Of a stretch of 64,000 nucleotides of DNA, positions 18,483-57,151 are shown one piece after another. A program made the position numbers and the translations under genes. The DNA is from an uncultured Clostridia bacterium (lineage in GTDB: Bacteria; Bacillota; Clostridia; Christensenellales; UBA1242). The notes under the pieces were generated by a model, which saw only the letters and a list, made by a program, of their open reading frames with translations, searched no databases and had not been told where the DNA came from. Location: the NCBI GenBank assembly GCA_944377365.1, contig CALWEQ010000009.1, positions 15,137 through 79,136 of the forward strand, written 5' to 3'. Positions within the stretch are counted from its first letter, which is position 1, and each line of letters starts with the position of its first letter.

Positions 18483-18498
18483 TTTTTTTTTTTTTTTT
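18483..18498. repeat. T16 homopolymer in the divergent promoter region
   Basis: 16 consecutive T, counted by hand, in the 466-bp extremely AT-rich spacer between the GT2 gene and the giant ORF. Confidence 0.9.
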
Positions 18499-18590: not shown

Positions 18591-18795
18591 TAATTTTATT
18601 TAAAATTTTATTTATTATTTTATAAAAATTTTTATATATAAATAACCGTTTTATAAAAATTTAGAAATCATTTTACAAAAAATTTTAAATATGTTTTTTA
18701 TAATTATTTATTTATATATATATTATATTATTTTGTTTTTGGGAAAAACTATGTTAAAATGTCTTTGTCAAATTATGGCGAAAGAGGTGTTTGAT

Positions 18796-21700
18796 ATGAA
18801 CAAAATTAAACAAATTTTTAAGTTTTCAACTTTTGCTTTACTTTCTTGTTTTCTGGCAGGAAGTGGGTTTTTGCTTTCCACGATAAATCCTACACCAACC
18901 AACGCACAAGTCGTTGAAGAAAATATCTCAAACAACACTCCTGTTTTTTTTAGTAACGGTGGTCATGAGAGCGAAGTTTATTTTTCACAAACTGGCATAG
19001 TTAAGTTTGATTTTATAGAACAAGCCGACCGTAATGCTGATGATAAAGATGATTATATCTATAAACTCGGTGATACGACAGTGTATCCTGAAGATGAAGG
19101 CTATGTAGAACCGACGGCCAGCTATGCAAATTATGAAAAAATAAAAATCTATCGCTATTACCCTGATGGCTTAAATGCCAATGATACCCCAACCCCAATC
19201 AATCCAAATCATTATTATTACATAGACATAAACTCAATCGCAATATCGTTGAACGGTGTGCCCCTAACTTATAGCGAAAGTGGTGGCACAGTCGACAATT
19301 TTATTTTAAAGTCAAACGCTTATGCTTACTTTGATGAATCGTTTTTCCCTGAATCTTTAAATTTTAAGATAGCACTAGATACTACAACCAACACAACTGA
19401 AACTGATTACAACGCAAAAATTACAGTGCCTTCTGACGACGCAGCTTTGCTAACAATTTACCAAGAAGGGCTTTTAAACATAAACGTTGGCTATACTCTC
19501 TATGACGTGAATTTGACTAGCACCGTAACAGGAGCCCCTTCCGAAACTCAAACAACTTTAACGGGACAAAGCCTAAACTATTCGATATTTTTGTTTAACA
19601 ACACATCTTATTTTGAAAGTGAAAGTTCACAAAATCCAAATGTCATATATGGAGAAAAAACTACAAGAACACCAAGCAATTCCGCCACACACAGTTATAA
19701 CTATTTTTACAATTACACTTCGAAAAGCTTGCCATATATCAGTTATGACCCTTACAAGTATGACCTTACAATAACAAAATCGCTAAACAACACTACTTCC
19801 TCTGAAACTATCGAATTTAATCCTGAAACAAAAGAATTTAAAGTGCCAAGTTTTGTTTACAATGCTGTTTTAAATGAAAACTCGTTGACAATATATTTCA
19901 ACGACCTTGGACTTTACAACCTACACTTTTCAATGAAATATTCATTCACAACCACCTCTGCAACAAGTGGCACAACAACACATGTTTATGATTTGTCGAC
20001 AACTGTAAAAGACCAACTGTTTTACGTTTATGGCGCGCAGATGTATTACACAAATTATGAAACAGGAGCGTTTTCTGAATTTAAATCAATTAAAGAAAAC
20101 TCGATTACTCAATCGGCAGATATAACTAGAAAACTTACGTCCCTGTCTACTGATGACAATTCTGCACTCTCTCCTAACGGCAATAACGATTTAAAAACTT
20201 ATATTGACAACATAACCAACACCCCAGTCGTAACTGACCAAACACCTGTAAAAATTTCGACTTACGCATCCAACGTTGTTGCAAAACTTTACACAAAAAC
20301 AGAAACAGAAACAGGTTGGGACTCAGGCCCTGCCATATCTACCACTAAAAACATAAGCGAAGATGGAACTTACTTACTAGCACTAGAATATAACTTTGCA
20401 AATTACACAAATTCGTCAGGGCTTGTGAATGCAAGCGAAGAATTTTATCAATATTTCTATTTTAAAATTGAAAAAGAAACACCTATCGTCAATGTTGAAA
20501 AACAAACAAGCACAGAGGAAAGCGAGTTTGAAAATCTTGCTTCAGGCAAATACACCAATCAAAATGTAAAAATCTCATATGGGGCTGATACAAGTGAGTT
20601 TGACGCAGATGTTTATGTTTATTTGTCGCGCTACTCCTTTACAAATTCAACAACTCCATTAACAAGGGAGCTCATATATCCAAAAGGCGAAATTACGCTG
20701 GGAGAATATCAGAAAGACGATTCAATAATGATCTATAACGAAAACAACGGAAAATATGTTTTAGAAATCTATTATGGCAAAAACGCATTAGAACAAAAGC
20801 CAATCACGAGATCATTCATTATCGACACAGAAGAGATTTCGGGACTACAAGCATACACCATTGCTTCTGTTTCTAAAAAATATTACGCTGAAAGCTTGCT
20901 TGAATCACAAGCTTCAAACGTTTATGGAGTCTCTACCAATCAACCTTTTGCTTTTGGCTGGGAAAACACAAAGCCTAGTGGAGCAAAGACTCAAGCCTGG
21001 GTCAAATACTTCCCACTAAAAAATTATGACGATTACTACACAGGCGCATCAGCATTTGGAACTCTCGTCTACGAACTTTTAAGTAGCGACACACTAGCTG
21101 TTGCCAAACGTCTTGATTTGCAGTCTGCGTCCAACTGGACTGAATACACAAACTCAAGCGTCTACCCACTCTCTTCTATTCCTGCCGAAAACGTAAAATC
21201 ACCAGCAGGCCTTTATGTCTTTCAGATCTTTGACGATGCTGGCAACACAACAACTGCGTATGTGTTTAACGACAATTCATCCCCTGTTTTTATGCTAGAA
21301 AAAGAGGGTCTTGGGTACAGCTTAATTTCAAATAACGAAACAATAAATTCGAACGCGACTGTTTATTGGTCAGATACCAAAGCAATTTATATTGATCTGC
21401 CTGATGGAAATTTTGCTTATGGCGATTTTTCAACTGATTTAACTGAAAACAAAGATAATGCCACTGACGAAAAATTGACCGAACTTTTTAATGACTTTAT
21501 TGGTGGCGCTTCACAAACAAACATTAAAACATTTGAATTTTTGCCTGACAATAGAAATGGCACGTATCTTATCGTTGACATTTTGGACCAAATAGCATTT
21601 GCCGAACGCTCGCCAGAGAATCTTGTTTTAACAACATTTGAAACAAATTCGTATGACATTCAATTTTCTTATTCAATTCATTACACTCAATCTACTGATG

Positions 21701-24700
21701 GGACAACAACTTTTTACCGTTCAACAACTGTAGATGACAACACATACGAAAATATTGAAACTGGCGAAAACTTTGTGGCTTACAATGGAATGATTAACAA
21801 TTTAGAGCTTAAAGATGCAATGATTTATCAAACGCTTACAGAAAACGGTAGCAGATTATTTTACTACGGTGAGCAAAACGCTTCTGCCTTAACACGTCTT
21901 GACACAAACACGCAAGTGACACCGTCAAACCAAGATGGTCAAATCATAATAGAGGGACTAATCGCAACATCAGTTGAATTTGTGGACATGGAAGGCACTT
22001 ACAGTTTTCTTGTTCGAGATGCATCAAACACAAAGGGGTTAAACGAACAAAACTTATTAACTCAATTGTCAGCTTATCCATCAGCAAGTCAATACATAAC
22101 GGTTTCCGCCGACACGTCTTCGGTTCAAATTAATTACAAAGATGATAACAACAAATCAAATCAACTGTTTTTAGCGGGCTATTATGCAACAAACGGTTCA
22201 GGGAACACGTCTCAAAGATCCAGCTTTTACACCCCAACATCTTATGAGGGAATTTTAGAAATATCCTACAAACCTACGGTTGAGAGCACCCAAATTGACA
22301 AATTAATATTGCGTTTCTATCCTTATGAAACCAAGATGATTGCACATAAATCAGCAAGTGGAGAAGCTAAAATTTCATTCTATCAAACATTGTCAGAAAC
22401 TTATACCGACTTTACGGTTTATGATTTTGACAGAGACGGCGCTTTTACAAGTGACACAACACGAACATATCAAATAAACCCTTCCGAGAACTTAACCACT
22501 GCAGGAAAATATATTTTGACTAGGACTTACAAAACTGGCGAAAGTTACACTGTTGACAAATTCGATTACGCAACACGCAATCTTACAGCGATTGTTGACA
22601 GAACAAATGTTATTTCAGAAAGCCAAGCTGTTACAGCTAATTCTAAAACGTATACTTTGCAAGACAATGACGGAAATCCTTCTGATTATACTTTAACAAT
22701 TTATGGAAATCTTTTCATTTTGCAAACTAACGACAACATAGTTTTCCCAATAAGTGCAGAAACAACATTTGTCGGCAGTAATTCCCCAGAAGACGCATAT
22801 TACAATGATGTCAATAAAGTGTGGACAAAAGGCAATGCCAGATATTTCATAATGCCAGAGGATTTTGAATTTACTTCACTTGAAATCACTTATAATGGTA
22901 AAACTTACACAACAAATGATGTAAGACCAACAGAAAATCATATTTCGACTTTGGAAAGCGTTGTCGGTGGGGACATGTTTGTCAATATGTATGATGATCA
23001 AGCTGGTGAACCCGGTTCAATCCTTTCCGTAACCTTCCCTAACGTTTCAATCACAGACGGAATTGTGTTAGGATCCGGCGAATCCTTCTACACCGACGAC
23101 CAATCAAATTTAGGAAACCAATCACCTAGCCCGATGTTTGAAACAAACAAACTGCCAGTAAAGGTTTACATACCTCAATACAAATACACAATTTACAATG
23201 ACGAATCATACACCAACGACGGAAAAGTTTCATATCAATCCAAAGAAAATCCATTGCTTTCATATTACGATCAACAAGCTCAATCTATTTCTTCAATTTC
23301 TGCTTACAAACTCTATGCCACAATAACAAGCAACAACGGAACGGTTTACTGTTCTAATGGCACTGACGAGAATGGATATTTACAATTTACTAATTCAAAC
23401 GGTGAGGTTTTAAATGAACTAACCGAAGAAGGTACTTACACCGTTACAATAACACAAAATTACAACGGCAGTGGCAGTGGAACTGCAAATGATTTTAGAA
23501 AGACATACAAATTTTCATTCAATATTCAAGAAACAAAACCAGAATTTGATTTGGCATCGGCTGGACGAGAATTAAAAACTCTTGGAAATGAAAATTATTA
23601 CACAAATCAAAAAAGTGTCACTTTTTCGTGGCGTGATGAAAATTCAGATTATATCGCAAACATTGACAAATCACACATTAAATTACAATTTTCAAACAAC
23701 TACCCAGATATGATCATCGATGTTTCTTCAACTTCTCCAAATGTGACCTTAGCAAGTGACGGAAGCTCAGATGAGTCAACGAGTTTGATTGCATCTGCAT
23801 TAGATTACAACCAATCAGGGCTAAACCACACTTTAACACTAGATTTTGAAAAGGCCAACATTTACAGTCAAAACATGTGGGTTGATGTTACAATGCAATA
23901 TGTTGGGCACAATGATGAATATTACCAGGTGACAACAAAACGTGTTACCATTGATAAAATAGCAAGCTATGACACTTTGGACAGCTTAATTTCAAAATTA
24001 ACACCTTTCTCATCGTCTTACATCTCATTTAACGATTCTAGTTTAAGAAATTATTACGATGTCGAAGGCATGACAGTAGCAAACAAAAATTTGGCAACTT
24101 ACAACACCACAGTGTCTAGTGGAAATCTAAAATATTATTCATACATGGTAAACCAACAATTTTTACAAGATTTAACAAACAAGATTGCAAACAACAATTC
24201 GCCTCAACATTCGGGAAACACCGTTTATGCATATTATAGAGAAATTAACCCTTATGATGGCACCTTTACAGAAACGGCCTATGACAATTTTGCAGAATCA
24301 AATTTTGATGAATTAATTCAAAATCTTGAAGCAAACAATTATTATGAAATCGTAGAACAAGATCTCGCTGGAAATTTAACTATATATTTAATCTATCTAT
24401 ACGCTGATAATAATAACGACGCTGATAATAATAATGATGGCTTCGACGGGACGATAGATGAATATGGCAACGTTTATGATATTGATGGAAATTCTATTGA
24501 CGCCTCTAAATTGCAGGGCATTCAATTTAATGACGAAAACAGATTTGTTCAAATAAGCGACGCACAAATTTTGGCTCAACAAACAACCGCAAAAGTTGTC
24601 GAAATGTTTTCTTCTAAAAACTTCAATTTGAAAGAGCTTAACTTCCGTGGAGACGTTTGGTTGACACTGACTGTTGCTCATCAAAATTATCAAACCAAAA

Positions 24701-27678
24701 GCTACTTATTCTCGCCTTGGCTATCTTTGACAAAATCCGCCTTAGACATGCAAACTGGAAATCAAGTTTCTTATGAACAAATATTCAATGATTTTACATC
24801 AAGTTCAGCAAGCTCGCTTGAAATAAGTTTGGAAATTTCAAACCGTGCAGATGGTGGCAAATTAAAGGCAGAATTAAATTTAACAAATGGCGCAAGTTTA
24901 AGTGCGACTTACTCTGATAGCCAAACAGAAGAATATCTTTCTATCAGACGTTCAACTCTTGTTTATCCTGTGGAAATCAAAATACAGATAAACAACGACG
25001 AGTTTGTGTATAAAGTCAAAAACGATCCAAATGCTCTTAACAATTTGTTAAATTCGTCTTACTCTTATTTAAACAATTGGGTGGACACTAAGATCGCTTT
25101 TACTTATGATTCAGAGAGGCTGACTTACAAATTCATCACTACCCCAGCAAACAACACAAAAGTCCGTTATCAAATTAGAGATAACTTTGGAAATGTTTCA
25201 ACTCTTATACACATCTTTGGAGAAACATATTTCGAACCGATTTCAAGCACCGGCAACCTTTACCAAGATTTGATTTCAAATCCAACTTTAAACGATGGAA
25301 GTGAAGATTATTTCATTTCATACGTAAGTAGTGAAGACATAATCTACCGTTATAACAGATCTATCTACTTTGTAAAAGCTTATTACTTTAACGGAAGTGA
25401 ATGGGAAGAAACAAGTGATTATTCTACATTTGATGGAGACGGCAACATTGTAGCTTGGACTTTTAGCAGAGGTGAAGATCTACAAACAGACAAACGATTT
25501 AAACTTTGTGTTTATGAAAAACCTGCTGACCCTGACGAAACTTGGGAGCCTTCAGCCGATGAACAGCCTGTTGACACAATCTTTTTACACATCTACGAAA
25601 TGAGACCTGAATTAAATACTGAAGATGTAGTTGCTGACTACAAAATTACATTTAGCGACCACTATGGAGAAAACATAACCGGTGATTTGTTAGATGACAA
25701 CACGACTATTGAATACTTAACAATCAATGGCAAACAACACAGAGTTACAAAACAAGGAAGCACCTTTGCACTTAATTTGACAATAACTTACACCGATCCT
25801 TCTTCGTTAAGTTATCCATATGAAGTTCTCTATTACCACCCTTCTACTATGGAAAATTTTGAACCGCTTTCTTCAGGGACAAGAGTGGATGAAACAGGAA
25901 TTTACTACTTCTTAATAAAATATGTCCAAAATGAAAATTCTGTCCTTTCAAATGAATATAAGCTTTACAAAGTTGAAATAGTGGATTCGGCACAAGAGTT
26001 CTATCGAGTTACAAACAATGGTGTTAATGTGGAAAGAGCGCCTGTTTATTACACATATGAAGGCACTGAATACTCTGATTACTACATAGTAAATGTAAAT
26101 TACAATCAAGATTCGGCATCCGTTCAAATAGTTCCAAATGTCTATCAACAGGTGGACGTTGTTGATAATACTTTAATACCTGAAGGTAGCGGAGTCGTTA
26201 CTGTAAGATATCGTGTTACAAATTATGTTGACAATTCACCACCAACTACGACCGGCGTGTCAGCATTTGACAGATATGTTTTTATCACTTACATTCCTCC
26301 AACAAGTAGTCCTGCAACTAATGCTGTTTACTACTTTAATCAAAATGAGCAATACAATATGCTAGGCTCGTCTTCAATAAACGCTATTGTCTCAGCTGAA
26401 AATTCAACACAAAACACAGTAACGTTAAGATGGAGTAAGTCATATGGCATTTCTACAAATCTAGTTTACGTAAACTTGCTAAAAGACGGAGTACAATTCT
26501 TTAATTCTGAAAGTTCGCAACTTACTGATTTGTCAATAGCTCTTGTTTCATACTACACAGACGACGATTACAATTATGTTACACTTGACAGAAGTGGTAC
26601 TTACACAGTAACAATCTATGACGAAGCAGGAAATACGCAATCATTTGCTTCAGGATTGCAATCGCTAAAATTCGTATTCTTAAAAGATGTGGCATTCTCT
26701 ATGACCTACACGGATCCAGTGACTGGGAATGAAATCGTTTCAGATCCTATACAAAAAGGCATCTTTAACAATGAAGTGACTTTGACCGTCCTTAACATGA
26801 ATGACTACTACACTGCTGAATCAACGGGAAGCGGAGAAAACATGATTCATGTTCAAAGAAACGGCTCTGCTTACACTGGATTTGAATATGATTCAACTAC
26901 TCATTCATTCAAATTTTCTAGCCCTGGCTATTACACTGTTTCTTTTAGTGCAATAAGTCAAACTGGTCAACAAGTGAGAGAGCAAACATACAACTTTACC
27001 ATTATTAATCCAAATGAATCGCGCTATTCCTTTGAATTCTCACCTTATCAAGACTATTATATTACTTCAATCGTTAAAGACAACTTGGGTGACATTTCAA
27101 ACCAATTAATCCAAAACATGCAAGAATACAACCTTAATTTGCAAACTGTTTTGATCAACGGAACAACTTATTTGCGAGAACTTATTACTTCATATTTCGG
27201 TGTTGGCAGTGGAAGATATACCGTTACAATTTCCACAAACAAGCCATTTAATCGCAACGATTATTCATCAACTTCTCTACTTACTTTCTCGTACTGGATT
27301 AACTCAACCACCGTTCCAATTAATGTTAGCATATCAGAAGGTGAATCAACCTCCTCTCCTATTAACGTAACTTTTAATGCAGAACGTGTATACCAAGCTG
27401 TTGGTGAATGTGTGATAACAATTGGGCTTAACGCTTACTATATTACCGCCGAAAATGCTAGCGCATTTGGTGTTGTGAATGCCCCTGCCATTGAACAAGC
27501 TGGAACACATTTCATCACAGTTCGTTCGATGAGCGGAAACCTGCTGTTCAGTTACAAGGTTGTAAAAACCGAACCTCTTAACGGCTGGGCAATAGCCGCG
27601 ATAGTAATTGGTTGTGTGGTAGCAATCGTAGCCGTGATAATAATTGTTAAACTAAGAAAGAAGATTAGAGTAAAATAG
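18796..27678 (+). CDS. giant (2960-aa) secreted or membrane-anchored surface protein, putative adhesin
   Basis: Start taken at ATG 18796 after SD aaagaggtg. N-terminal signal peptide MNKIKQIFKFSTFALLSCFLAGSG... has a possible lipobox LLSC or an SPase I site near TNA-QV. The body is T/N/S/Y-rich and beta-like. It has one C-terminal TM helix plus a basic stop-transfer sequence (WAIAAIVIGCVVAIVAVIIIVKLRKKIRVK). No LPxTG was seen. Confidence 0.85.
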   Translation: MNKIKQIFKFSTFALLSCFLAGSGFLLSTINPTPTNAQVVEENISNNTPVFFSNGGHESEVYFSQTGIVKFDFIEQADRNADDKDDYIYKLGDTTVYPEDEGYVEPTASYANYEKIKIYRYYPDGLNANDTPTPINPNHYYYIDINSIAISLNGVPLTYSESGGTVDNFILKSNAYAYFDESFFPESLNFKIALDTTTNTTETDYNAKITVPSDDAALLTIYQEGLLNINVGYTLYDVNLTSTVTGAPSETQTTLTGQSLNYSIFLFNNTSYFESESSQNPNVIYGEKTTRTPSNSATHSYNYFYNYTSKSLPYISYDPYKYDLTITKSLNNTTSSETIEFNPETKEFKVPSFVYNAVLNENSLTIYFNDLGLYNLHFSMKYSFTTTSATSGTTTHVYDLSTTVKDQLFYVYGAQMYYTNYETGAFSEFKSIKENSITQSADITRKLTSLSTDDNSALSPNGNNDLKTYIDNITNTPVVTDQTPVKISTYASNVVAKLYTKTETETGWDSGPAISTTKNISEDGTYLLALEYNFANYTNSSGLVNASEEFYQYFYFKIEKETPIVNVEKQTSTEESEFENLASGKYTNQNVKISYGADTSEFDADVYVYLSRYSFTNSTTPLTRELIYPKGEITLGEYQKDDSIMIYNENNGKYVLEIYYGKNALEQKPITRSFIIDTEEISGLQAYTIASVSKKYYAESLLESQASNVYGVSTNQPFAFGWENTKPSGAKTQAWVKYFPLKNYDDYYTGASAFGTLVYELLSSDTLAVAKRLDLQSASNWTEYTNSSVYPLSSIPAENVKSPAGLYVFQIFDDAGNTTTAYVFNDNSSPVFMLEKEGLGYSLISNNETINSNATVYWSDTKAIYIDLPDGNFAYGDFSTDLTENKDNATDEKLTELFNDFIGGASQTNIKTFEFLPDNRNGTYLIVDILDQIAFAERSPENLVLTTFETNSYDIQFSYSIHYTQSTDGTTTFYRSTTVDDNTYENIETGENFVAYNGMINNLELKDAMIYQTLTENGSRLFYYGEQNASALTRLDTNTQVTPSNQDGQIIIEGLIATSVEFVDMEGTYSFLVRDASNTKGLNEQNLLTQLSAYPSASQYITVSADTSSVQINYKDDNNKSNQLFLAGYYATNGSGNTSQRSSFYTPTSYEGILEISYKPTVESTQIDKLILRFYPYETKMIAHKSASGEAKISFYQTLSETYTDFTVYDFDRDGAFTSDTTRTYQINPSENLTTAGKYILTRTYKTGESYTVDKFDYATRNLTAIVDRTNVISESQAVTANSKTYTLQDNDGNPSDYTLTIYGNLFILQTNDNIVFPISAETTFVGSNSPEDAYYNDVNKVWTKGNARYFIMPEDFEFTSLEITYNGKTYTTNDVRPTENHISTLESVVGGDMFVNMYDDQAGEPGSILSVTFPNVSITDGIVLGSGESFYTDDQSNLGNQSPSPMFETNKLPVKVYIPQYKYTIYNDESYTNDGKVSYQSKENPLLSYYDQQAQSISSISAYKLYATITSNNGTVYCSNGTDENGYLQFTNSNGEVLNELTEEGTYTVTITQNYNGSGSGTANDFRKTYKFSFNIQETKPEFDLASAGRELKTLGNENYYTNQKSVTFSWRDENSDYIANIDKSHIKLQFSNNYPDMIIDVSSTSPNVTLASDGSSDESTSLIASALDYNQSGLNHTLTLDFEKANIYSQNMWVDVTMQYVGHNDEYYQVTTKRVTIDKIASYDTLDSLISKLTPFSSSYISFNDSSLRNYYDVEGMTVANKNLATYNTTVSSGNLKYYSYMVNQQFLQDLTNKIANNNSPQHSGNTVYAYYREINPYDGTFTETAYDNFAESNFDELIQNLEANNYYEIVEQDLAGNLTIYLIYLYADNNNDADNNNDGFDGTIDEYGNVYDIDGNSIDASKLQGIQFNDENRFVQISDAQILAQQTTAKVVEMFSSKNFNLKELNFRGDVWLTLTVAHQNYQTKSYLFSPWLSLTKSALDMQTGNQVSYEQIFNDFTSSSASSLEISLEISNRADGGKLKAELNLTNGASLSATYSDSQTEEYLSIRRSTLVYPVEIKIQINNDEFVYKVKNDPNALNNLLNSSYSYLNNWVDTKIAFTYDSERLTYKFITTPANNTKVRYQIRDNFGNVSTLIHIFGETYFEPISSTGNLYQDLISNPTLNDGSEDYFISYVSSEDIIYRYNRSIYFVKAYYFNGSEWEETSDYSTFDGDGNIVAWTFSRGEDLQTDKRFKLCVYEKPADPDETWEPSADEQPVDTIFLHIYEMRPELNTEDVVADYKITFSDHYGENITGDLLDDNTTIEYLTINGKQHRVTKQGSTFALNLTITYTDPSSLSYPYEVLYYHPSTMENFEPLSSGTRVDETGIYYFLIKYVQNENSVLSNEYKLYKVEIVDSAQEFYRVTNNGVNVERAPVYYTYEGTEYSDYYIVNVNYNQDSASVQIVPNVYQQVDVVDNTLIPEGSGVVTVRYRVTNYVDNSPPTTTGVSAFDRYVFITYIPPTSSPATNAVYYFNQNEQYNMLGSSSINAIVSAENSTQNTVTLRWSKSYGISTNLVYVNLLKDGVQFFNSESSQLTDLSIALVSYYTDDDYNYVTLDRSGTYTVTIYDEAGNTQSFASGLQSLKFVFLKDVAFSMTYTDPVTGNEIVSDPIQKGIFNNEVTLTVLNMNDYYTAESTGSGENMIHVQRNGSAYTGFEYDSTTHSFKFSSPGYYTVSFSAISQTGQQVREQTYNFTIINPNESRYSFEFSPYQDYYITSIVKDNLGDISNQLIQNMQEYNLNLQTVLINGTTYLRELITSYFGVGSGRYTVTISTNKPFNRNDYSSTSLLTFSYWINSTTVPINVSISEGESTSSPINVTFNAERVYQAVGECVITIGLNAYYITAENASAFGVVNAPAIEQAGTHFITVRSMSGNLLFSYKVVKTEPLNGWAIAAIVIGCVVAIVAVIIIVKLRKKIRVK

Positions 27679-31723: not shown

Positions 31724-33454
31724 TTACATCTTTTCAGGCACTTCTATGGCAAGCACATCGCAGGCTGAATTGATCTCGTTTAAAGTCAGCTTTAACAAGG
31801 TTAATTTTGTAAATTTTTTGTTTAAATCTTGTTCAGAAATTATGCGCTCGGCATTGTAAAACGTTGAAAAGTTTTTTGCTAAATCGTATAAAGCATTACA
31901 AACACTGCTTAAACTTTTTTCATTAAATGCAGTTTCATAGCTTGCTTGCAATTTTGCCATGCTGATTACAACTGCTTTTTGTTCTGGTGTGTAAAAAGAA
32001 AGGTTTTCTTTAAAACTTCCTGCTTTGTTTAAAATTGACTTAATCCTGCAAGCGGTGTATTGAATATATGGCCCTGTTTTTCCTTCAAAAGAAGTGAATT
32101 TGTCTATGTCAAACACATAATCTTTTTCTACAACATTTGATAAATCTGCAAATTTAATTGCGGAATTTGCAATTATTCTTTTTAATTCATTGTCATAATC
32201 AGTGCCATTTTGTTTTAATTTTTCTTCAACTTTTTCTTGAACCATGCTTATCAGGTCAAGCAAACCAACATTGCCACCGTTTCTTGTCTTAAACGCCTTC
32301 CCGTCTTTGCCGTTCATTGTTCCAAAACCAGTGTGCCATAACTGTTGATTTGCAGGCGATATTCCTGCCTTTTTGCATGCTCTGAAAATTTGAGTAAATC
32401 GCTGAGTTTGTCTGCCATCTGTTAGATAATGTAAAATGTCGGGATGATAAAACTTGTTGCGATAATAAATTGTTGCAATATCGGAGGTGGCATAAAGTTC
32501 GCCTCCGTTTGATTTTTGTATTATGAGTGGTGGCATAGGGTTGTCATAACGTTGCACTTCATCTGGAGTTTTTTTAGGTAGAGGAATTTGTTCCCCCTCA
32601 ACTGCCACATCAACAACGAGAGCTCCTTCGCTTTCACGTGCGAGATTTTTTTCTTTAAAAATGTTTATTACCGTGTCAATATATTCACGTGCATCACTTT
32701 CACCATTCCATAAATCAAAATCGGCGTCAAGCAATTTGCAAACCTTTTTAGCTTCTTTCACAGAAACATCTCTCAATTTTTTCCAAAAATCATAATATGG
32801 CTCTTGTTTGTTTTGAAAAGCCAACGTCAAGCTTTCCGCCCTTTCTTTAAAAAACCTGTCCTCATCTTTTAATTTACTCGCCTTTGGGTATGCTTCGTTC
32901 ATAACTTCTATATTTAAGTTAAGCTCTCCTGACATATATTTTTCAAGCGTTCCTTCCTTTTCTAACATTGCCATAATCAAGCCTAACGGCATTCCCCAGT
33001 CTCCAAAAAAGATGTCGCTTGTTACTTTATAACCCAACTTTTTGTAAAGTCTTTTCAAGGCTTCACCAATATTAAAGGATCGCATATGGCCTATGTGCAT
33101 AGCTTTTCCCAAATTTGGCCCACCATAGTCAATAAAAATGTGCTCTTTTTTCTTTAAATATTTGTGATTTAGAATTTCTTTTCCGAGCTTCTCAAGCCCT
33201 ATTTGTGTTAATTTAATGTTTATAAACGCAGGTTTTGCAACGGAAAATTCGAAAAACTCGTTTGATGGAATGCTGTTTACGATCTTTTGTGCCAGTTCAA
33301 AAGGATTTGTGTTAAGTTTTTTTGCAACAGAAAAACACGAATTGCATTGAAAGTCACAATTTGGCATGTTTGAAAATACGACCGAAAACTCATCCTCCAC
33401 GCCTTGTGATTTTGCCGAACTCGTAAGAATTTTTTCTGCTTCTTTTTTAATCAT
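31724..33454 (-). CDS. argS: arginine--tRNA ligase
   Basis: 576 aa with GPNLGKAMHIGHMRS (HIGH). The anticodon-binding C-terminus ends in ...PEKM. Confidence 0.95.
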   Translation of the reverse strand: MIKKEAEKILTSSAKSQGVEDEFSVVFSNMPNCDFQCNSCFSVAKKLNTNPFELAQKIVNSIPSNEFFEFSVAKPAFINIKLTQIGLEKLGKEILNHKYLKKKEHIFIDYGGPNLGKAMHIGHMRSFNIGEALKRLYKKLGYKVTSDIFFGDWGMPLGLIMAMLEKEGTLEKYMSGELNLNIEVMNEAYPKASKLKDEDRFFKERAESLTLAFQNKQEPYYDFWKKLRDVSVKEAKKVCKLLDADFDLWNGESDAREYIDTVINIFKEKNLARESEGALVVDVAVEGEQIPLPKKTPDEVQRYDNPMPPLIIQKSNGGELYATSDIATIYYRNKFYHPDILHYLTDGRQTQRFTQIFRACKKAGISPANQQLWHTGFGTMNGKDGKAFKTRNGGNVGLLDLISMVQEKVEEKLKQNGTDYDNELKRIIANSAIKFADLSNVVEKDYVFDIDKFTSFEGKTGPYIQYTACRIKSILNKAGSFKENLSFYTPEQKAVVISMAKLQASYETAFNEKSLSSVCNALYDLAKNFSTFYNAERIISEQDLNKKFTKLTLLKLTLNEINSACDVLAIEVPEKM

Positions 33455-34046
33455 CGATCTCTCTCCTGTCTTCTATTGCACGCATCAGTGTTGCCTCGTC
33501 TGCATACTCCAAATTGCTTCCCATTGAAATTCCTTGCGCAAGCCTAGTAACTTTCACTCCCAGCGGTCGCAATAACCGAGAAATGTACATGGCCGTTGCG
33601 TCGCCCTCTACGTCTGGATCTGTCGCCATAATGACCTCTACAACTTTGTCATCTTTAACTCTCTTCAGCAACTCTTTAATCTTTAAATCTTCTGGTCCAC
33701 GCCCTTCTAATGGACTTATTGTTCCAAACAAAACATGGTAGCAACCGTTGAATGTTTTCACCTTTTCCATCGCAATAATATCTTTGGGTTCTTTTACTAC
33801 GCAAACAATTTTTGGATCGCGATTTAAACAAATGTCACACACAGGCTTGTCCGTATAATTACCACACTTAGAGCATAATTTTATTTTCTCTTTTGCATTT
33901 TTAATAGCTTCGGCAAAATTTTCTGCGCGTTCGTTTGATCCTTCGATTATAGAAAAAGCATAGCGTTGCGCCGTTTTATAGCCAACGCCTGGTAACGATC
34001 TAAAATATTCAATTAATCTTTCAATAGGATCATCAAATTTTGCCAT
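33447..34046 (-). CDS. recR: recombination protein RecR
   Basis: LPGVGYKTAQRYAF (HhH), a C4 zinc finger CSKCGNYTDKPVCDIC, and Toprim VCVVKEPKDIIAME...ATDPDVEGDATA. Confidence 0.96.
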   Translation of the reverse strand: MAKFDDPIERLIEYFRSLPGVGYKTAQRYAFSIIEGSNERAENFAEAIKNAKEKIKLCSKCGNYTDKPVCDICLNRDPKIVCVVKEPKDIIAMEKVKTFNGCYHVLFGTISPLEGRGPEDLKIKELLKRVKDDKVVEVIMATDPDVEGDATAMYISRLLRPLGVKVTRLAQGISMGSNLEYADEATLMRAIEDRREIDD

Positions 34047-34047
34047 A

Positions 34048-34368
34048 TTACATTCCTGGTATCTGTGGTATTCTTTCTTTTTCCGCTATGTCGATTTTTG
34101 CTATGACATCATTTATTGCAGAAACTACAAGGTCTTCAAGCATTTCAACATCGTCTGGATCAACAACTTCCTTTTTAATTTTCACGCTTTTCAAAGTTTT
34201 GTCACCAAGCATAATCACTTCAACCATGCCACCACCAGAAGAACCTCTAAATTCTTCTGCGTTTAGTTCTTCTCTTGCTTGTTGCATTTGTTGTTGAATT
34301 TTTTGTGCTTGACGCATAAGCTGTTGCATATTGCCTCCGCCAAAACCTCCGCCAAAACCGTAAGCCAT
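34048..34368 (-). CDS. ybaB: nucleoid-associated protein YbaB/EbfC
   Basis: 106 aa with MQQLMRQAQKIQQQMQQAREEL...SSGGGMVEV. Sits in the canonical dnaX-ybaB-recR context. Confidence 0.92.
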   Translation of the reverse strand: MAYGFGGGFGGGNMQQLMRQAQKIQQQMQQAREELNAEEFRGSSGGGMVEVIMLGDKTLKSVKIKKEVVDPDDVEMLEDLVVSAINDVIAKIDIAEKERIPQIPGM

Positions 34369-34378
34369 GTTTTCCTCC

Positions 34379-34741
34379 TTATTTGATTATTTTTAATTTT
34401 TCACCAAACATCTTTTCTAGTTTTTGTTTGTCTAGTTCAATATTGCTAGGTAATATCTCCGTTTTTTCTATGACAACGTTCATTTCAAGCCCTTGCCAGC
34501 TAAGCGCTCGCTCTATCTCTCGCTTTCCGTCTTTTAATAGTCCTTGAACCGTGGTGTCAGTGGTCGAAACAACCAGATTCTTTTCTATGATTTTGACATC
34601 TGTAATATCGCCACACGCAACGTGTAATGCAACGTGTTTGTGCTCTTTCAAAAACAAAACAACTTTCCCCCAAATTTCTCGAACATTTGTAGAGATGCTT
34701 GTCGCGAGTGGCTTAATTAATTTTTTTTTTGAAAATCTCCA
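34379..34741 (-). CDS. dnaX: dnaX tau-specific C-terminal segment, in the -1 frame relative to the upstream dnaX ORF
   Basis: This frame opens right after a TAA at 34744-34742 and reads WRFSKKKLIKPLATSISTNVREIWGKVVLFLKEHKHVALHVACGD... to the stop at 34379. The track lists only the last 92 aa, from a TTG. It has no SD of its own. It overlaps the zero-frame end only across the A10 run. Confidence 0.7.
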   Translation of the reverse strand, partial: WRFSKKKLIKPLATSISTNVREIWGKVVLFLKEHKHVALHVACGDITDVKIIEKNLVVSTTDTTVQGLLKDGKREIERALSWQGLEMNVVIEKTEILPSNIELDKQKLEKMFGEKLKIIK

Positions 34742-35832
34742 TTAATGCATGAAATTGCGACGTTTTCAACTAACAGCCGTGTGGATAACGCATAACGTAA
34801 TTCCGCCTCACTAGCCGAAAAATTTTGCATGTATCCTATTAATTGTTTGTCTGTTGCTCGGTCGCTTTGATCAAGCATCTTCGAAACGATTTCATCTGGC
34901 AAATTTAAAATTTCATTAGGATTGTTGCAGGTCTTGCAAATCAACAAATTTCTTGCGTGCTTAGCTGCATCCTTGGCAAAAATTGCAAGATTTTTGCCAC
35001 TATTTTCAATTCTGTTGATTTCTTCAAGCACCCCACCTATGTCTTTATCTATGATTTTGTCAAAAAAATTGATCAACAATTCATGGTCGGTTGCACCAAG
35101 CACCTTCAACACATCTTCTTGTGTGATATGCCCACCAGCATATGCGTTGATGGAGTCAGCAATTGACAATGTGTCACGCACACTTCCTTCGCCTGCTGAT
35201 GCGATTAATTTTATTGCTTCTGGTTCGGCATCAATGTTTTCTTTTTCAAAAACATTTGTTAGCACTTTGCAAAGATTTTCAATCGACAACAATCTAAAAT
35301 CGAATCTAGAACATCTCGAAAGTATTGTCGCTGGCAACTTTTGAACTTCTGTTGTTGCTAAAATAAATATCACATATTGAGGTGGCTCTTCCAAAGTTTT
35401 CAAAAGAGCATTGAATGCGCTGTCCGAAAGCATGTGAACTTCATCAATAATATAAACTTTATATTTTGCATCTATCGGAGCAAACTTAACCTTTTCACGC
35501 AACTCCCTAATGTCGTCAACCCTATTGTTTGAAGCTGCATCTATTTCAACTATGTTGACATCGTTTTCAGCCGAAAGCCTTCTGCAAACATCACATTGAC
35601 CACATGGCGAACCTGTTTGAGTGTTTGTGCAATTCACAGCTTTTGCAAAAATTTTTGCAACGCTTGTTTTTCCTGTCCCACGAGAACCTGTAAACAAATA
35701 GGCATGCGAAAGCTTGCCTGTCAATATTTGATTTGCAAGCGTTTTTGTTATGTGCTCTTGCCCAACCACTTCTTCAAATGTTTTTGGTCGATATTTTCGA
35801 TATAATGCTAGGTTGTTGTTTTTTTCTGTCAT
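34717..35832 (-). CDS. dnaX: DNA polymerase III subunit gamma/tau, zero-frame product (clamp-loader domains I-III)
   Basis: HAYLFTGSRGTGKTSVAK (Walker A), Zn module CGQCDVCRR, YIIDEVHMLS (Walker B), SRC motif ILSRCSRF. It ends ...GDFQKKN-stop, two codons after an A10 run (plus-strand T10 at 34721-34730). Confidence 0.93.
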   Translation of the reverse strand: MTEKNNNLALYRKYRPKTFEEVVGQEHITKTLANQILTGKLSHAYLFTGSRGTGKTSVAKIFAKAVNCTNTQTGSPCGQCDVCRRLSAENDVNIVEIDAASNNRVDDIRELREKVKFAPIDAKYKVYIIDEVHMLSDSAFNALLKTLEEPPQYVIFILATTEVQKLPATILSRCSRFDFRLLSIENLCKVLTNVFEKENIDAEPEAIKLIASAGEGSVRDTLSIADSINAYAGGHITQEDVLKVLGATDHELLINFFDKIIDKDIGGVLEEINRIENSGKNLAIFAKDAAKHARNLLICKTCNNPNEILNLPDEIVSKMLDQSDRATDKQLIGYMQNFSASEAELRYALSTRLLVENVAISCINGDFQKKN

Positions 35833-35881: not shown

Positions 35882-36631
35882 TTACTTTATGTTGTTTGCA
35901 ATATCTAAAAATTGGTTGACATTTAGTGATAGCTTACCAAACAATCCTCCGTCAATGCCAGCACAGTTTAAAAGTGCTCCAACATTTTTTTCATTTAAAC
36001 TGCCACCATAAAGAACTTGAATGTCTCGACTTGCTTTTTCTGAATAACTTTCGTATATCACCTTTCGAACGACTTTTGCTGCATTTTCCACATCTTTAAC
36101 ACTGGCGTTTTGTCCAGTGCCTATCGCCCAAATAGGCTCATACGCAATTATGACACTTTCTAATTCGTTTTCATATAATCCCCTCACGCATTCTTCGATT
36201 TGATGTCTAATTACGTCAAAAGTCTTTCCTGTGTTGCGATCTGCAAGAGATTCACCAACGCAAACTATGCATTTAAGTCCATTTTTAAGTGCTGTTTTTA
36301 TTTTTTTGTTTATAAGCTTGTCAGATTCTTTGTATTTTAAACGCCTGTCGCTATGCCCAATTATCACATATTCAACGCCGATGTCTTTGAGCATTTGTGC
36401 ACTGACCTCACCTGTGTAAGCGCCCTCTTCCTCATCGCTGACGTTCTGTGCGCCTATTCTCACAAGCGTGCCTTTTGTCAAATATGATGAAATTGGCAAA
36501 GAAACAAAAGAGGGGCACAAAACGACATCGGCACGGTTCCCGTTAAACCCTGCAACAAACTTTATTAAATATTGCTTGGTTTGCGACGGCGTTTGATTCA
36601 TTTTAAAATTACCAACTAACAATTTTTTCAT
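35882..36631 (-). CDS. tpiA: triose-phosphate isomerase
   Basis: VGNFKMN..., IIGHSDRR, AYEPIWAIGTG, YGGS. Confidence 0.96.
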   Translation of the reverse strand: MKKLLVGNFKMNQTPSQTKQYLIKFVAGFNGNRADVVLCPSFVSLPISSYLTKGTLVRIGAQNVSDEEEGAYTGEVSAQMLKDIGVEYVIIGHSDRRLKYKESDKLINKKIKTALKNGLKCIVCVGESLADRNTGKTFDVIRHQIEECVRGLYENELESVIIAYEPIWAIGTGQNASVKDVENAAKVVRKVIYESYSEKASRDIQVLYGGSLNEKNVGALLNCAGIDGGLFGKLSLNVNQFLDIANNIK

Positions 36632-37809
36632 ATATACTTCTCCTGAATTACATCTATTCCTGGAAGGTCTTCTCCACTCATCAGCTTCAACGAAGCTCCT
36701 CCACCTGTTGAGATGTGATTTATAAGTTTGTCACATTTGGCTTGTTTAACTGCACTGACGCTGTCTCCTCCGCCTACTATGCTGTATGCCTTTGACTTGG
36801 CAATTGCTTTTGCAATCTTAAATGTCCCCGCTTTAAACTTCTCATCTTCATATTTCCCTAAAGGCCCATTCCAAACTATTTGCCTTGCCCTGCCGATTTC
36901 CTCCTCAAACAAGTTAATGGTTTTAGGGCCAATATCAGCTCCTACCATATCCCCCGACAAAACCTCTGTTTGAAAAGGCTTCATCTTTTTGTCACTAAGA
37001 TTATACGCAATATGGTCAATTGGTAACACAATTCTTTTCCCCATGGTCTTTAATTCATCTAAAATCTGTGATGCACTACTAACGCTTTCTGCGTTTATAA
37101 GACTCTGACCGATCGTGTGCCCTTGCGCAACTAAAAATGAGTATGCCATAGCTCCGCCGACCAAAATTGAATCTGCAACTTTTGCAATATTTAAAATTAC
37201 TTTTATTTTGTCCTGGACCTTAGCTCCACCAAAAATAGCAACAAAAGGTTTTTTAGGGTTTTTTATGGCTTCCTCAATGGTGTTTATTTCGTTTTCCATC
37301 AAAAACCCTATTGCATTTGGCAAAAGCCTTGCAACACCAAAAGTCGAAGCATGCTTTCTGTGTGCTACACCAAACGCGTCGTTGACATAAATATCTGCAA
37401 GTGACGCTAGATGCTTTGCAAATTCGGGATCGTTTTCAGTTTCTTCTTTGTAAAACCTTACATTTTCCAAAAGTAGTATCGAACCGTTGCTCATACTTTC
37501 TACTTGTTTGGCAACTTCATCACCTATAACTTTGTGTGCGAACTGAACTTTTCCAGGGAAATATTTCATAAGAATCAAAGCAACTGGCCATAACGAAAGT
37601 CTGAATTCAAACCCCTTTGGTCTGCCTAAATGTGAACATATAATGACTTTTGCTCCTCTTTCGACCAAATAACGAATTGTTGGAAGCTCACTCACAACTC
37701 TAGTCGTATCGGTTATTTTCCCAACCTTGTTCATAGGCAGGTTGAAGTCGGCTCTCAACAAAACCCTTTTTCCTTCTAGCCCCACCAAATCTCTGATACT
37801 TCTTTTCAT
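36628..37809 (-). CDS. pgk: phosphoglycerate kinase
   Basis: RADFNLPM..., SHLGRPKG, FGGAKVQDKI, STGGGASL. 4-nt overlap with tpiA. Confidence 0.97.
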   Translation of the reverse strand: MKRSIRDLVGLEGKRVLLRADFNLPMNKVGKITDTTRVVSELPTIRYLVERGAKVIICSHLGRPKGFEFRLSLWPVALILMKYFPGKVQFAHKVIGDEVAKQVESMSNGSILLLENVRFYKEETENDPEFAKHLASLADIYVNDAFGVAHRKHASTFGVARLLPNAIGFLMENEINTIEEAIKNPKKPFVAIFGGAKVQDKIKVILNIAKVADSILVGGAMAYSFLVAQGHTIGQSLINAESVSSASQILDELKTMGKRIVLPIDHIAYNLSDKKMKPFQTEVLSGDMVGADIGPKTINLFEEEIGRARQIVWNGPLGKYEDEKFKAGTFKIAKAIAKSKAYSIVGGGDSVSAVKQAKCDKLINHISTGGGASLKLMSGEDLPGIDVIQEKYI

Positions 37810-42990: not shown

Positions 42991-43431
42991 ATGAAAGTTA
43001 TTTTATTAGCCGATGTTAGAGGCTGTGGAAAAAAGGGAGAAATAAAGGAAGTCGCAAACGGATATGCGCAAAATTTTTTGATAAAAAACGGACTAGCAAA
43101 AATAGCCGACAATTCATCTTTGTCGCATCAAAAACAGATTGAAAGCGCAAACAAATTTCACCGCGCGCAAGAACTTGAACAAGCGATGGCACTTGCAAAA
43201 CAAATGCAAAATTTACAGCTTAATTTTAGTTTAAAGGTTGGAGAGAATGGAAAAACTTTTGGCTCAATTACAAGCAAAGAAATAGCTGAAAAGCTTGCCG
43301 AAATGGGTTACAAAATCGACAAGAAAAAAATAATTGCCGAACCAATAAAATCAGCAGGCAAATATAACATATTAATCAAACTTCACTGCGATGTGACAAC
43401 AAAAATAACAGTCGTCGTGGAGGCATTATGA
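42991..43431 (+). CDS. rplI: 50S ribosomal protein L9
   Basis: [38 protein letters not shown] gaggag lies upstream. The TGA stop overlaps the next ATG. Confidence 0.95.
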
Positions 43432-44552
43432 AAGCATTAATTTTTACAATGACCTGCGGAGAAGGGCATAATATGATGGCAAAATCGCTTTCACAAGCAT
43501 TTAACGAAAAAGGTGTAGAAAATATAATAGTTCAAACACACGGATACAATCAAAAAAGATTGGATAGAGAAAACAAAATGTTTTTGTGGGCTTGTAAACA
43601 TATTCCGAATCTTTACGATTTTGTTTGGAATAAACTTAGAAAAAAAAATAAGCCAATGCAAAAACTACCTTACTATGTAAAGGATTGTGTAGATTATTTT
43701 AATAAAAAAATTAAAGAATATGAACCTGATATTATCGTCTGCACACATTTTTACGCTAGCAGTGTTTTAACATATATGAAAAATGAAAACTTACTAAACA
43801 ATAAAGTAATTACCAGCACTATACTGGTTGATTTTTGTTTAGCGCCTTACTGGGAACATTCCGTAGGTGTTAATTATGTGTTTCAGCCATATACAAACAC
43901 AACAAACGAATTAATTGAAAAAGGGTTTAACGAAAATCAAATAATTACCACAGGTCTGCCAATTCGACAAGAATTTTTTAATGAAAGAAAAAAAACGATT
44001 GATTTTAAGAAAGCACTACATTTAAACGATCTTTTTACCATTTTAATTATAGGTGGAGGCAACGGCTTAGGAAATACCTTAAAGCTTTTAAAATCTATCC
44101 TAAAAAAGAATTTAAACATTCAAATAATTGTTATAAACGGAAAAAATGTGAAGAATTGTAAAAAAATATCTAATTATATTGAGAAAAACAAAATTACAAA
44201 TATCGTTAACTTGGGTTTTGTTGATAACGTAGATGAATACATGCGTGCTTCTGATTTATTAATCTGTAGATGTGGTAGTAGTGTTTTATCAGAGGCAGTT
44301 TGTTTAGGCAAACCTTTTATTGCTCGTGAAAAAATGATATTAAATGAAAAAATTAACAAAAAATTTTTTATTAATGAAGGCTGTGCGTTAGGCTTGAACA
44401 AAATTACAGAAGCTGGAGAAAAAATAAAATTTGTTTTAGAAAATCCTATAGTTTATAAAAATATGCAAAATAATATCAAAAAAATGCAACGAAAAAATCC
44501 TTCAAAAATTATTGTCGATTTTTTAATTGACAAAGTAGAAAAAGTAAAGTAA
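43428..44552 (+). CDS. GT28-family glycolipid glycosyltransferase (UgtP / MGDG-synthase-like)
   Basis: N-terminus [14 protein letters not shown] is MGDG_synth-like. The C-terminal GT-B region reads IGGGNGLG...[25 protein letters not shown]. Confidence 0.7.
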
Positions 44553-56080: not shown

Positions 56081-56451
56081 GAAACTTTACCTCACTTGAA
56101 CTAGCTTTCATCGGCGACGCAATACACACCGCGTTTGTCAGAAAGTGGGCTTTGCTCAATCATGACAAACCTATAAATGAACTGCACAAAATATGTTCAA
56201 AATTTTGTAGTGCTGTGCTTCAATCAAGCGTCTTGGACACGCTTGAACTGACCGATGAAGAAAAAGAAATTGCACGAAAAGCTAGAAACGCAAAAATCAA
56301 ACATCAGGCAAAAAATTCAGGCACTGCGGAATACAAAAAAGCAACAGCTTTTGAAGCAATAATAGGCTATCTTTTTCTTTCGCAAAACTATGAAAGATTA
56401 AACTACTTATTACAAAAATCAATCGTCAACGGAGGGACAGATGCAATTTGA
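56077..56451 (+). CDS. mrnC: mini-ribonuclease III
   Basis: LELAFIGDAIHTAFVRKW...ATAFEAIIGYLFL. Canonical position before rlmB-sigH. Confidence 0.88.
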   Translation: MRNFTSLELAFIGDAIHTAFVRKWALLNHDKPINELHKICSKFCSAVLQSSVLDTLELTDEEKEIARKARNAKIKHQAKNSGTAEYKKATAFEAIIGYLFLSQNYERLNYLLQKSIVNGGTDAI

Positions 56452-57151
56452 AGGAAAAAACGCGATAAGACAAGCTTTGCAAGCAGACATAACAATAAAC
56501 AAAATTTTGGTGGATCAGAACTATGCAAATCGAAAAGACGATTTAATTATGCTTGCTCGTGAAAAAAAAATAAGAATTGAATTTGCGCCAAAGCAAGCAC
56601 TTGATCGAAAATCAACCACATCTCATCACCAAGGCTACATCGCCTTTGCTGTTGATTTTGCTTACACTCCCCTTGAAAAACTTTCTTCTAAAGATTTGCC
56701 TTTTTATGTTTTGCTTGATGGAATAGAAGACCCACACAATTTAGGTGCGATCATTAGATCATGCGAGTGTGCAGGTGTTGATGGAATTGTTATACCCAAA
56801 AACAGAGCTTGTCAAGTTAATGACACTGTGATAAGAACAAGCACAGGTGCGATTGCAAATGTAAAAATTGCTCAAGTGACAAATTTAAAAGAAGCCATTG
56901 ACTATTTTAAAAAGAAAAACATTTGGGTTTTTGCAGCAGAAACAGGCGGAGAATGTATTTACAAAAAAAACCTCAATGTCCCACTCGCTGTAATAATAGG
57001 TTCAGAAGGAAAAGGTGTAAGGCCTAGCATACTTGAAAAATGTGATGGCGTGATTTCATTGCCACTGAAAGGACAAGTCAATTCATTAAACGCTAGCGTC
57101 GCTTGTGGCATTGTGGTTTTTGAAGTATTAAGACAAAGGATAAATTTATGA
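56441..57151 (+). CDS. rlmB: 23S rRNA 2'-O-ribose methyltransferase, SpoU/TrmH family (RlmB/YacO)
   Basis: LDGIEDPHNLGAIIRS, IIGSEGKGVR, PLKGQVNSLNASVACG. Confidence 0.88.
   Translation: MQFEGKNAIRQALQADITINKILVDQNYANRKDDLIMLAREKKIRIEFAPKQALDRKSTTSHHQGYIAFAVDFAYTPLEKLSSKDLPFYVLLDGIEDPHNLGAIIRSCECAGVDGIVIPKNRACQVNDTVIRTSTGAIANVKIAQVTNLKEAIDYFKKKNIWVFAAETGGECIYKKNLNVPLAVIIGSEGKGVRPSILEKCDGVISLPLKGQVNSLNASVACGIVVFEVLRQRINL

Follow-up and report, generated by a model that had tools for sequence, protein, structure and literature searches.

Programmed decoding of dnaX can yield two clamp-loader subunits, tau and gamma, from one gene. In Escherichia coli, tau is the zero-frame product, and the shift site A_AAA_AAG is accompanied by a strong Shine-Dalgarno (SD)-like element 10 nucleotides (nt) upstream and by an essential downstream stem-loop; in this organism, A_AAA_AAG shifts far more readily than the heptamers A_AAA_AAA and A_AAA_AAC (Atkins et al. 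2016). In Thermus thermophilus, tau is templated and gamma arises by slippage: an A9 run at the gamma/tau boundary gives mixed mRNA through slippage of RNA polymerase (Larsen et al. 2000, PNAS 97:1683), with approximately 50% slippage. An inverted layout, in which dnaX consists of two open reading frames (ORFs) and tau needs recoding, was described as GeneTack cluster COF_239165634 (Antonov, Coakley, Atkins, Baranov & Borodovsky 2013, NAR 41:6514, PMC3711429) and has been restated since (Atkins et al. 2016; Sharma et al. 2014). As presented in the text and Figure S3 of the 2013 study, the cluster holds 17 genes from 12 genera, each of them shifted by -1 in the DNA sequence; 12 have poly-A, nine of them A10, and transcriptional realignment was proposed for the two-ORF dnaX genes with A10 runs. 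The genera named there are Chlorobium, Prosthecochloris, Pelodictyon, Chloroherpeton, Flavobacterium, Cytophaga, Capnocytophaga, and Coraliomargarita, which belong to the Chlorobi, Bacteroidetes, and Verrucomicrobia. Here we analyze a dnaX locus with the inverted layout from an uncultured Clostridia bacterium; the whole stretch of DNA that was analyzed, called the window below, comprises 64,000 nt of contig CALWEQ010000009.1 (assembly GCA_944377365.1).

In the window, dnaX is split at an uninterrupted A10 run, with a gamma-like protein in the zero frame and a predicted tau-specific tail in the -1 frame. The features of the split gene are as follows.

35832..34717, minus strand: dnaX ORF1, a 371-amino-acid (aa) gamma-like clamp-loader subunit with domains I-III, ending ...GDFQKKN
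34744-34742, minus strand: TAA that closes the tail frame upstream, from the translation
34740..34737, minus strand: GGAG, a possible SD-like element, 7 nt 5' of the first heptamer and 10 nt 5' of the second
34730..34721, minus strand: A10 slippery run, the candidate recoding site (T10 on the plus strand)
34729..34723 and 34726..34720, minus strand: two overlapping zero-frame -1 slippery heptamers, A_AAA_AAA and A_AAA_AAT respectively, from the sequence
34719..34717, minus strand: zero-frame TAA stop ending gamma, one codon past the A10 run
34732..34379, minus strand: tail ORF in the -1 frame (KKK-LIKPLATS...), predicted tau-specific linker plus C-terminal domain
34672..34382, minus strand: conserved putative tau C-terminal domain of about 97 aa (WGKVVLFLKEH...ACGDITDV...SWQG...)

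ORF1 was assigned to NCBIfam PRK05563 (E=3e-150, profile positions 3-358 of 567) and to TIGR02397 (dnaX_nterm, 4.5e-134), and carries the Pfam families DNA_pol3_delta2, DNAX_ATPase_lid, and DNA_pol3_gamma3. Read directly from the sequence, its 3' end is GAT TTT CAA AAA AAA AAT TAA. The tail frame opens 4 codons 5' of the run, overlaps the ORF1 frame across the A10 only, and stays open for 120 codons up to the TAA at 34381-34379, with 117 codons counted as the tail. From its upstream TAA on, this frame reads WRFSKKKLIKPLATSISTNVREIWGKVVLFLKEHKHVALHV..., and its translation is W R F S K K K L I K P L A T S ... IWGKVVLFLKEHKHVALHV .... ORF1 and the tail would be fused if the mRNA gained one A or if the ribosome slipped by -1 at the A10; once one A is added, the fused tau is 484 aa long and has the trans-frame junction peptide ...DFQKKKLIKPLATS.... 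An alternative genetic code was considered for the split and rejected, as the zero frame ends at TAA, a codon that every bacterial code reads as termination. A first-pass annotation of the window, made from the sequence alone, had already recorded ORF1, the A10, the heptamer, and the limits of the -1 frame, and every one of these details was confirmed. It had further proposed that the zero frame gives gamma and that tau needs a -1 shift or an extra A, the inverse of E. coli and Thermus; this reading is supported by conservation of the arrangement at 57-99% identity, as described below.

The best 120 matches to the fused protein (59-99% identity) were taken from ENA, NCBI, JGI, and Logan assemblies, and 15 distinct lineages, 11 with a split and four with an in-frame dnaX, were compared at the DNA level (57-99% protein identity). 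The short form predominates among these homologues, 111 of the 120 being 366-393 aa long and ending at the same point as window ORF1. K-K-N stands at the junction in all 111 short homologues and is the exact C-terminus in 101, while the remaining nine proteins are full-length and read ...KKKL... over the junction. The same frame relationship as in the window was found in L002, L003, L004, and L164-L199, and both the position and the direction of the frameshift are kept among the homologues, which is the property by which the class of Antonov et al. 2013 was clustered. The relatives are metagenome-assembled genomes (MAGs) from gut samples, named Candidatus Caccovivens or "Clostridia bacterium."

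At the DNA level, an unbroken A9-A11 run is present at the junction in 15 of 15 lineages. Split alleles have either an A9 that begins at codon position 3 (NNA AAA AAA AAC TRA) or an A10 that begins at position 2 (CAA or GAA, then AAA AAA AAT TAA), and the in-frame alleles are longer by exactly one A (A10 in L001, L196, and L197; A11 in L163). Although AAG makes up approximately 25% of the Lys codons in these dnaX genes, none occurs inside the run. Furthermore, in all of the 57 different C-terminal contexts, the position ahead of KK is occupied by V, A, Q, S, E, T, P, or I; each of these residues has an NNA codon, and the roughly 25% of residues that lack one never occur at this position. Together, the uninterrupted run and the restriction of the preceding residue to NNA codons indicate that selection acts on a nucleotide run of at least nine A rather than on the peptide. 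Both non-tau frames stop 1-8 codons past the run in all 15 lineages (1-2 codons in one frame, 2-8 in the other). The run and the frame arrangement in dnaX of the closest relatives had been put forward as a check in the first-pass annotation, and both proved to be conserved.

More distant Clostridia (at most 54% identity) mostly carry dnaX as a single ORF of 466-632 aa whose boundary has no A-run, a state found at 137 of 195 loci among the matches listed. Scans of broad collections with DnaX motifs returned mostly distant single-ORF homologues, with L001-L004 as the close ones among the matches listed. Five of the distant single-ORF genes (L110, L159, L031, L103, and L158; 41-49% identity) have an in-frame A8-A10 at the boundary between domain III and the linker, and these runs may be sites of the Thermus type, at which gamma would be the slippage product. 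At four further loci, from other Clostridia, Hydrogenedentota, and a metagenome (L008, L051, L054, and L090), dnaX is cut at about 365-405 aa with no A-run. A long ORF follows in another frame in three of them (+1 in L008; -1 in L051 and L054), and L090 is known only as a 393-aa short dnaX gene; such short genes could reflect errors in the MAGs or recoding of another type.

Long homopolymers are error-prone, and a 1-nt under-call in the assembly had been named as the rival explanation of the split; a decaying pseudogene would be a related one. Two independent strains from other samples (L161 and L162) match the window at 99.2-99.3% DNA identity over 7113 bp, with 51-54 mismatches, 0 gaps, and the same A10, and the under-call was rejected on this evidence. 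Identical short DnaX proteins recur as well, P0110 in 81 index blocks, P0119 in 85, and P0020 in 26, and the short P0012 protein is present on 18 contigs. The same A10 in independent strains, and the split in dozens of independent assemblies across ENA, NCBI, JGI, and Logan, indicate that the split dnaX is real and not an assembly under-call.

A second gene in the window bears on the same question, since its frameshift is also mended by a single A. The two halves of this gene are as follows.

28286-28411, minus strand: one half of the split Ser_hydrolase gene (PF06821)
27870-28256, minus strand: other half of the split Ser_hydrolase gene (PF06821)

The frameshift lies at ACT AAA AAG GCG, in the A5 run at 28326-28330 on the minus strand, and one extra A restores ...WLEDFLTKKGEQVFNFNYPTPIG.... 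The first-pass annotation, which had set this gene beside dnaX, was right that the frameshift exists and that one A repairs it, but a systematic assembly problem does not follow: the A5 is short, the frameshift is repeated in an independent contig (L200, ERZ24773442) that is 100% identical over 3387 bp, and it is the sole other frame disruption found in the window. The hydrolase is probably a genuine pseudogene rather than an under-call. The listed long ORFs, including one of 2995 aa, are intact, even though seven-nt A/T runs number 119 and eight-nt ones 29 in the window. Other same-strand overlapping ORF pairs were considered as homopolymer-split genes and rejected; S26 peptidase/QueH and HU/flippase are separate intact genes. 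Since dnaX is, in addition, essential and its tail is judged below to be under purifying selection, an artefact or a decaying pseudogene is effectively refuted as the cause of the split.

The trans-frame products align over the 15 lineages and share invariant W-G-K, C-G-D-I, and W-Q-G motifs. In line with the earlier suggestion that the tail is tau-like, a profile of the tail matches the extreme C-terminus of single-ORF Clostridia DnaX proteins with E values of 3.5e-9 to 4.5e-5 (residues 359-452 of 466 in L010, E=3.5e-9; 444-545 of 546 in L065; 414-520 of 522 in L005; also L030 and L009). Between the run and WGK, the linker contains 0 stops in 172 codons over the 11 split lineages, against a stop density of 9.8% for the same frame in the rest of these genes (P ~2e-8, a value that is indicative only, as the lineages are related). 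From these comparisons, the tail is judged to be a conserved coding region that is homologous to the C-terminus of single-ORF DnaX and under purifying selection. Searched by itself, the tail matched neither a Pfam nor an NCBIfam family, and no PDB entry matched it in sequence. An AlphaFold2 (AF2) model of the tail (predicted local distance difference test score, pLDDT, 77) is a small alpha/beta domain, and a Foldseek search with this model gave weak matches, all with E of at least 5e-3, in which DnaA domain I and DciA ranked at the top and E. coli tau-C (5fku_E) ranked seventh. The positional homology, together with these weak fold matches, suggests that the tail is a tau domain. Among known folds, the model most resembles DnaA domain I and KH-like domains of the DciA type.

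The tail could instead be a separate small protein, made by termination-reinitiation or from a non-canonical start of its own, with a clamp loader that contains gamma only. Gene callers do annotate stand-alone tail ORFs, and 56 of the 58 tail matches in a 50%-identity protein library are short stand-alone ORFs of 56-176 aa. However, the starts called for the tail ORF are inconsistent (82-132 aa), and no ATG, GTG, or TTG lies between the upstream stop and WGK in four of the 11 split lineages; the window is among these four, which bears out and extends the earlier remark that the tail has no ATG of its own. Where candidate starts exist, no SD precedes them. In 10 of the 11 split lineages, just 3-7 codons separate the opening of the tail frame from the end of the run; the stretch linking run and domain is maintained without stops, and sister alleles and outgroups carry the same domain fused to DnaX. 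A polymerase-binding domain off the clamp loader would also lose its tethering role. A separate tail protein is therefore considered very improbable. The many short stand-alone matches in the library suggest rather that the split form is diverse in the clade and systematically mis-annotated; in these MAGs, dnaX is routinely called as a short gene plus an orphan hypothetical ORF, and annotation pipelines should join the two. By the same token, a dnaX frameshift of this kind should not be counted as a pseudogene or as a defect in MAG quality.

We next consider how tau could be made from the split gene. Our favored reading, which we hold to be somewhat more probable than all others together, is that an essential gene here carries, at the junction, a conserved site of programmed recoding, with gamma produced by standard decoding and tau mainly via transcriptional slippage. 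Standard decoding would stop one codon past the A10 and give the 371-aa gamma-like subunit, without the polymerase-tethering end. On the most likely route to tau, RNA polymerase would stutter on the T10 template and add one non-templated A, and the resulting A11 mRNA would be translated into the 484-aa tau; ribosomes that shift by -1 on A_AAA_AAA or A_AAA_AAT may contribute to a smaller extent. As the other frames stop shortly past the run, any mRNA off the tau register would give gamma. The mechanism is probably transcriptional, since the run is always at least nine long (never a bare heptamer or A_AAA_AAG), stimulatory structures were not found around it, and Thermus provides a precedent. 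The layout, its conservation, the coding nature and homology of the tail, the missing start codons and RNA stimulators, and the scarcity of long runs are observed; that slippage occurs, with what efficiency, and in what proportion at transcription and at translation is inferred.

The homopolymer content of the window bears on the run itself. Observed numbers of A/T runs were compared with an analytic first-order Markov expectation for the whole window.

A/T runs of length 7: 119 observed, 93 expected
A/T runs of length 8: 29 observed, 40.5 expected
A/T runs of length 9: 2 observed, 17.7 expected
A/T runs of length 10: 1 observed, 7.7 expected
A/T runs of length 9 or more: 4 observed, about 31 expected

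Runs of at least nine are approximately 8-fold depleted, lengths 5-7 are slightly in excess, and the break falls at 8-9 nt. Baranov et al. 2005 interpret such a depletion as selection against slippage-prone runs of at least nine and connect it with polymerases that are prone to slip; long A/T runs are counter-selected in this genome. The A10 in dnaX is the longest coding homopolymer in the window, the sole longer run being an intergenic T16 (18483-18498), and given the depletion, an A10 inside an essential gene is not a chance feature.

Several observations weigh against the transcriptional reading, and some of them would fit ribosomes that slip by -1 on A_AAA_AAA or A_AAA_AAT, aided by GGAG/GGTGA and by a stop entering the A site, as in E. 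coli with the frames reversed. The run holds a zero-frame X_XXY_YYZ heptamer in every split allele, G-rich patches complementary to the anti-SD lie 7-10 nt upstream in 12 of the 15 lineages, and the zero-frame stop follows directly after the run, so that a translational -1 shift giving the same protein is possible; Atkins et al. 2016 mention candidates in which tau comes from ribosomal frameshifting. In-frame A9 runs in the genes at 43640-43648 and 56562-56570 indicate that A9 is tolerated in some coding sequence. The relatedness of the lineages, already mentioned, limits the weight of the stop-density test, and some of the singleton in-frame alleles described below could be homopolymer assembly noise.

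The signals expected of E. coli-like frameshifting were, however, weak or missing. Over the 15 lineages, RNAalifold predicted no conserved pair, either in the 75 nt that follow the run or in the 60 nt that precede it, and the window's own folds flanking the run were not better than those of shuffled sequences (z = +0.56 and +0.34); an E. coli-like stimulatory stem-loop or pseudoknot 3' of the heptamer was found neither in the alignment nor in the downstream fold of the window (z = +0.56). The GGAG had been likened in the first-pass annotation to the E. coli stimulatory element. It is indeed present 7 nt 5' of the heptamer, but an E. coli-like cassette is not supported: GGAG binds the anti-SD with modest strength (-6.4 kcal/mol, in the 13th percentile for windows of the same gene), the patches are weak throughout (-5 to -8 kcal/mol) and missing in three lineages, and they overlap a conserved Gly codon, which confounds their conservation. 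The heptamers are A_AAA_AAA and A_AAA_AAT, or A_AAA_AAC in relatives, and A_AAA_AAG was never seen. The run is never shorter than nine, although 7 nt are enough for frameshifting, and the heptamers A_AAA_AAA and A_AAA_AAC are the ones that shift far less in E. coli than A_AAA_AAG. A mainly translational route is thus a serious but unlikely alternative, and slippage of RNA polymerase on the run remains our preferred source of tau.

The length of the run varies within the clade. A neighbor-joining tree built on the N-terminal domains has at least six places at which in-frame alleles sit within groups of split ones. The P0001 90%-identity cluster contains ten 372-aa members (33 contigs) and four 485-aa members (one contig each), and the P0014 90%-identity cluster contains four 367-aa members (26 contigs) and three 478-479-aa members (one contig each). 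In a few lineages the in-frame state is constant (the P0031 cluster, P0023, and P0025/P0027 with L001). By contig counts, the split allele outnumbers the in-frame allele by approximately 10:1. Run length switches heritably between n and n+1 within the clade and so swaps the default product. At a recoding efficiency of about 50%, a single nucleotide can decide which of the two products depends on recoding (Atkins et al. 2016); the n/n+1 pattern fits this remark and lends it natural support.

The coexistence of both alleles within single 90%-identity clusters (P0001 and P0014), and the nesting of in-frame among split alleles, might also be read as a switch at the DNA level only, in which replication slippage toggles n and n+1, tau comes from an in-frame subpopulation, and the split allele is the majority state. 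Tau is reported to be the essential form of DnaX (Blinkowa 1993), and cells with the majority split allele would not survive without recoding. Moreover, the split allele prevails by about 10:1 and is fixed over lineages down to 57% identity. Run-length polymorphism is real, but it cannot be the sole source of tau, and a DNA switch acting by itself is improbable. Slippage during transcription and heritable changes in run length could also act together. In this speculative extension of the favored reading, to which we give only a slim chance, the A-run would be a two-level rheostat: RNA slippage would set the tau:gamma ratio in each cell, and heritable n/n+1 toggling would flip the default. If this were true, populations of these gut Clostridia would carry a phase-variable replisome stoichiometry, in which, for example, access of translesion polymerases would be traded against replication coupling. 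It would also be the first evidence of any Bacillota lineage using the gamma subunit; characterized Firmicutes such as Bacillus and Streptococcus are not known to make any form but tau.

The split dnaX lies in the usual dnaX-ybaB-recR cluster. Its neighbors are as follows.

37809..36628, minus strand: pgk, upstream of tpiA
36631..35882, minus strand: tpiA, upstream of dnaX
34368..34048, minus strand: ybaB, downstream of dnaX, named from Pfam labels on syntenic loci
34046..33447, minus strand: recR, following ybaB

In two loci of the P0119 lineage (L191 and L192; positions 3518-3958), a PNPOx-family gene lies between the dnaX tail and ybaB; it is missing in the sister strains L193-L195. The two in-frame A9 runs mentioned above lie in intact genes, one in an MGDG-synthase-like glycosyltransferase (43428..44552; run at 43640-43648) and one in a SpoU-family RNA methyltransferase (56441..57151; run at 56562-56570). 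TAAG follows the run in both genes, and one alternative run length would stop at once. The T16 at 18483-18498, the longest run in the window, is intergenic and lies approximately 190 nt upstream of the 2995-aa ORF (18691..27678), for which Pfam gave no match; the T16 is a candidate for phase variation, as part of a promoter or as a spacer, of a giant surface protein.

The inverted dnaX design is not new, as it is present in Antonov et al. 2013 (PMC3711429); the window adds a new lineage in the Bacillota, not a new principle, and extends the design from the Chlorobi, Bacteroidetes, and Verrucomicrobia species shown in 2013 to uncultured gut Clostridia. Its importance follows from the function of the gene: tau tethers the polymerase to the clamp loader and dnaX is essential, so replication in a clade whose DNA specifies only the short form has to depend on non-standard decoding. 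The window has the sequence features of the 2013 class, namely, an upstream ORF with DnaX domains I-III, a tail in the -1 frame, and a poly-A junction (7-10 A in that class). As far as the class is portrayed in the 2013 text, the two share a zero-frame gamma, a stop right after the run, a tau C-terminus in the -1 frame, poly-A of 9-10, and transcriptional realignment as the mechanism proposed. Set against the species shown there, the window lineage differs in belonging to the Bacillota/Clostridia. Two further differences can be listed on the same basis: tau of the window clade is short, at about 480 aa, since only a linker and a single domain of about 100 aa follow the junction, and n and n+1 alleles occur together in species-level clusters.

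With Thermus, the window locus shares an uninterrupted run of at least nine A on the sense strand, nearby stops in both non-tau frames, and, as predicted here, two products from one gene. The in-frame sister alleles (L001, L163, L196, and L197; A10 or A11) have exactly the Thermus layout. In contrast to Thermus, the window templates gamma, and tau is the product that would need slippage. The locus resembles E. coli dnaX in the gene and its predicted products, in an A-rich X_XXY_YYZ heptamer, in the stop after the shift site, and in a possible SD-like element; it differs in having no AAG and no conserved stem-loop, in a run of at least nine, and in the reversal of the frames. Shigella mxiE, Citrobacter rodentium tssM, and genes of Buchnera and Blochmannia are different genes in which two ORFs are joined in the mRNA by a non-templated base at a run of at least nine A/T, and in which the longer functional product needs slippage, as proposed here for dnaX. 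The endosymbiont cases among them are usually seen as tolerated decay, whereas the site in the window is conserved clade-wide and is predicted to give two useful products.

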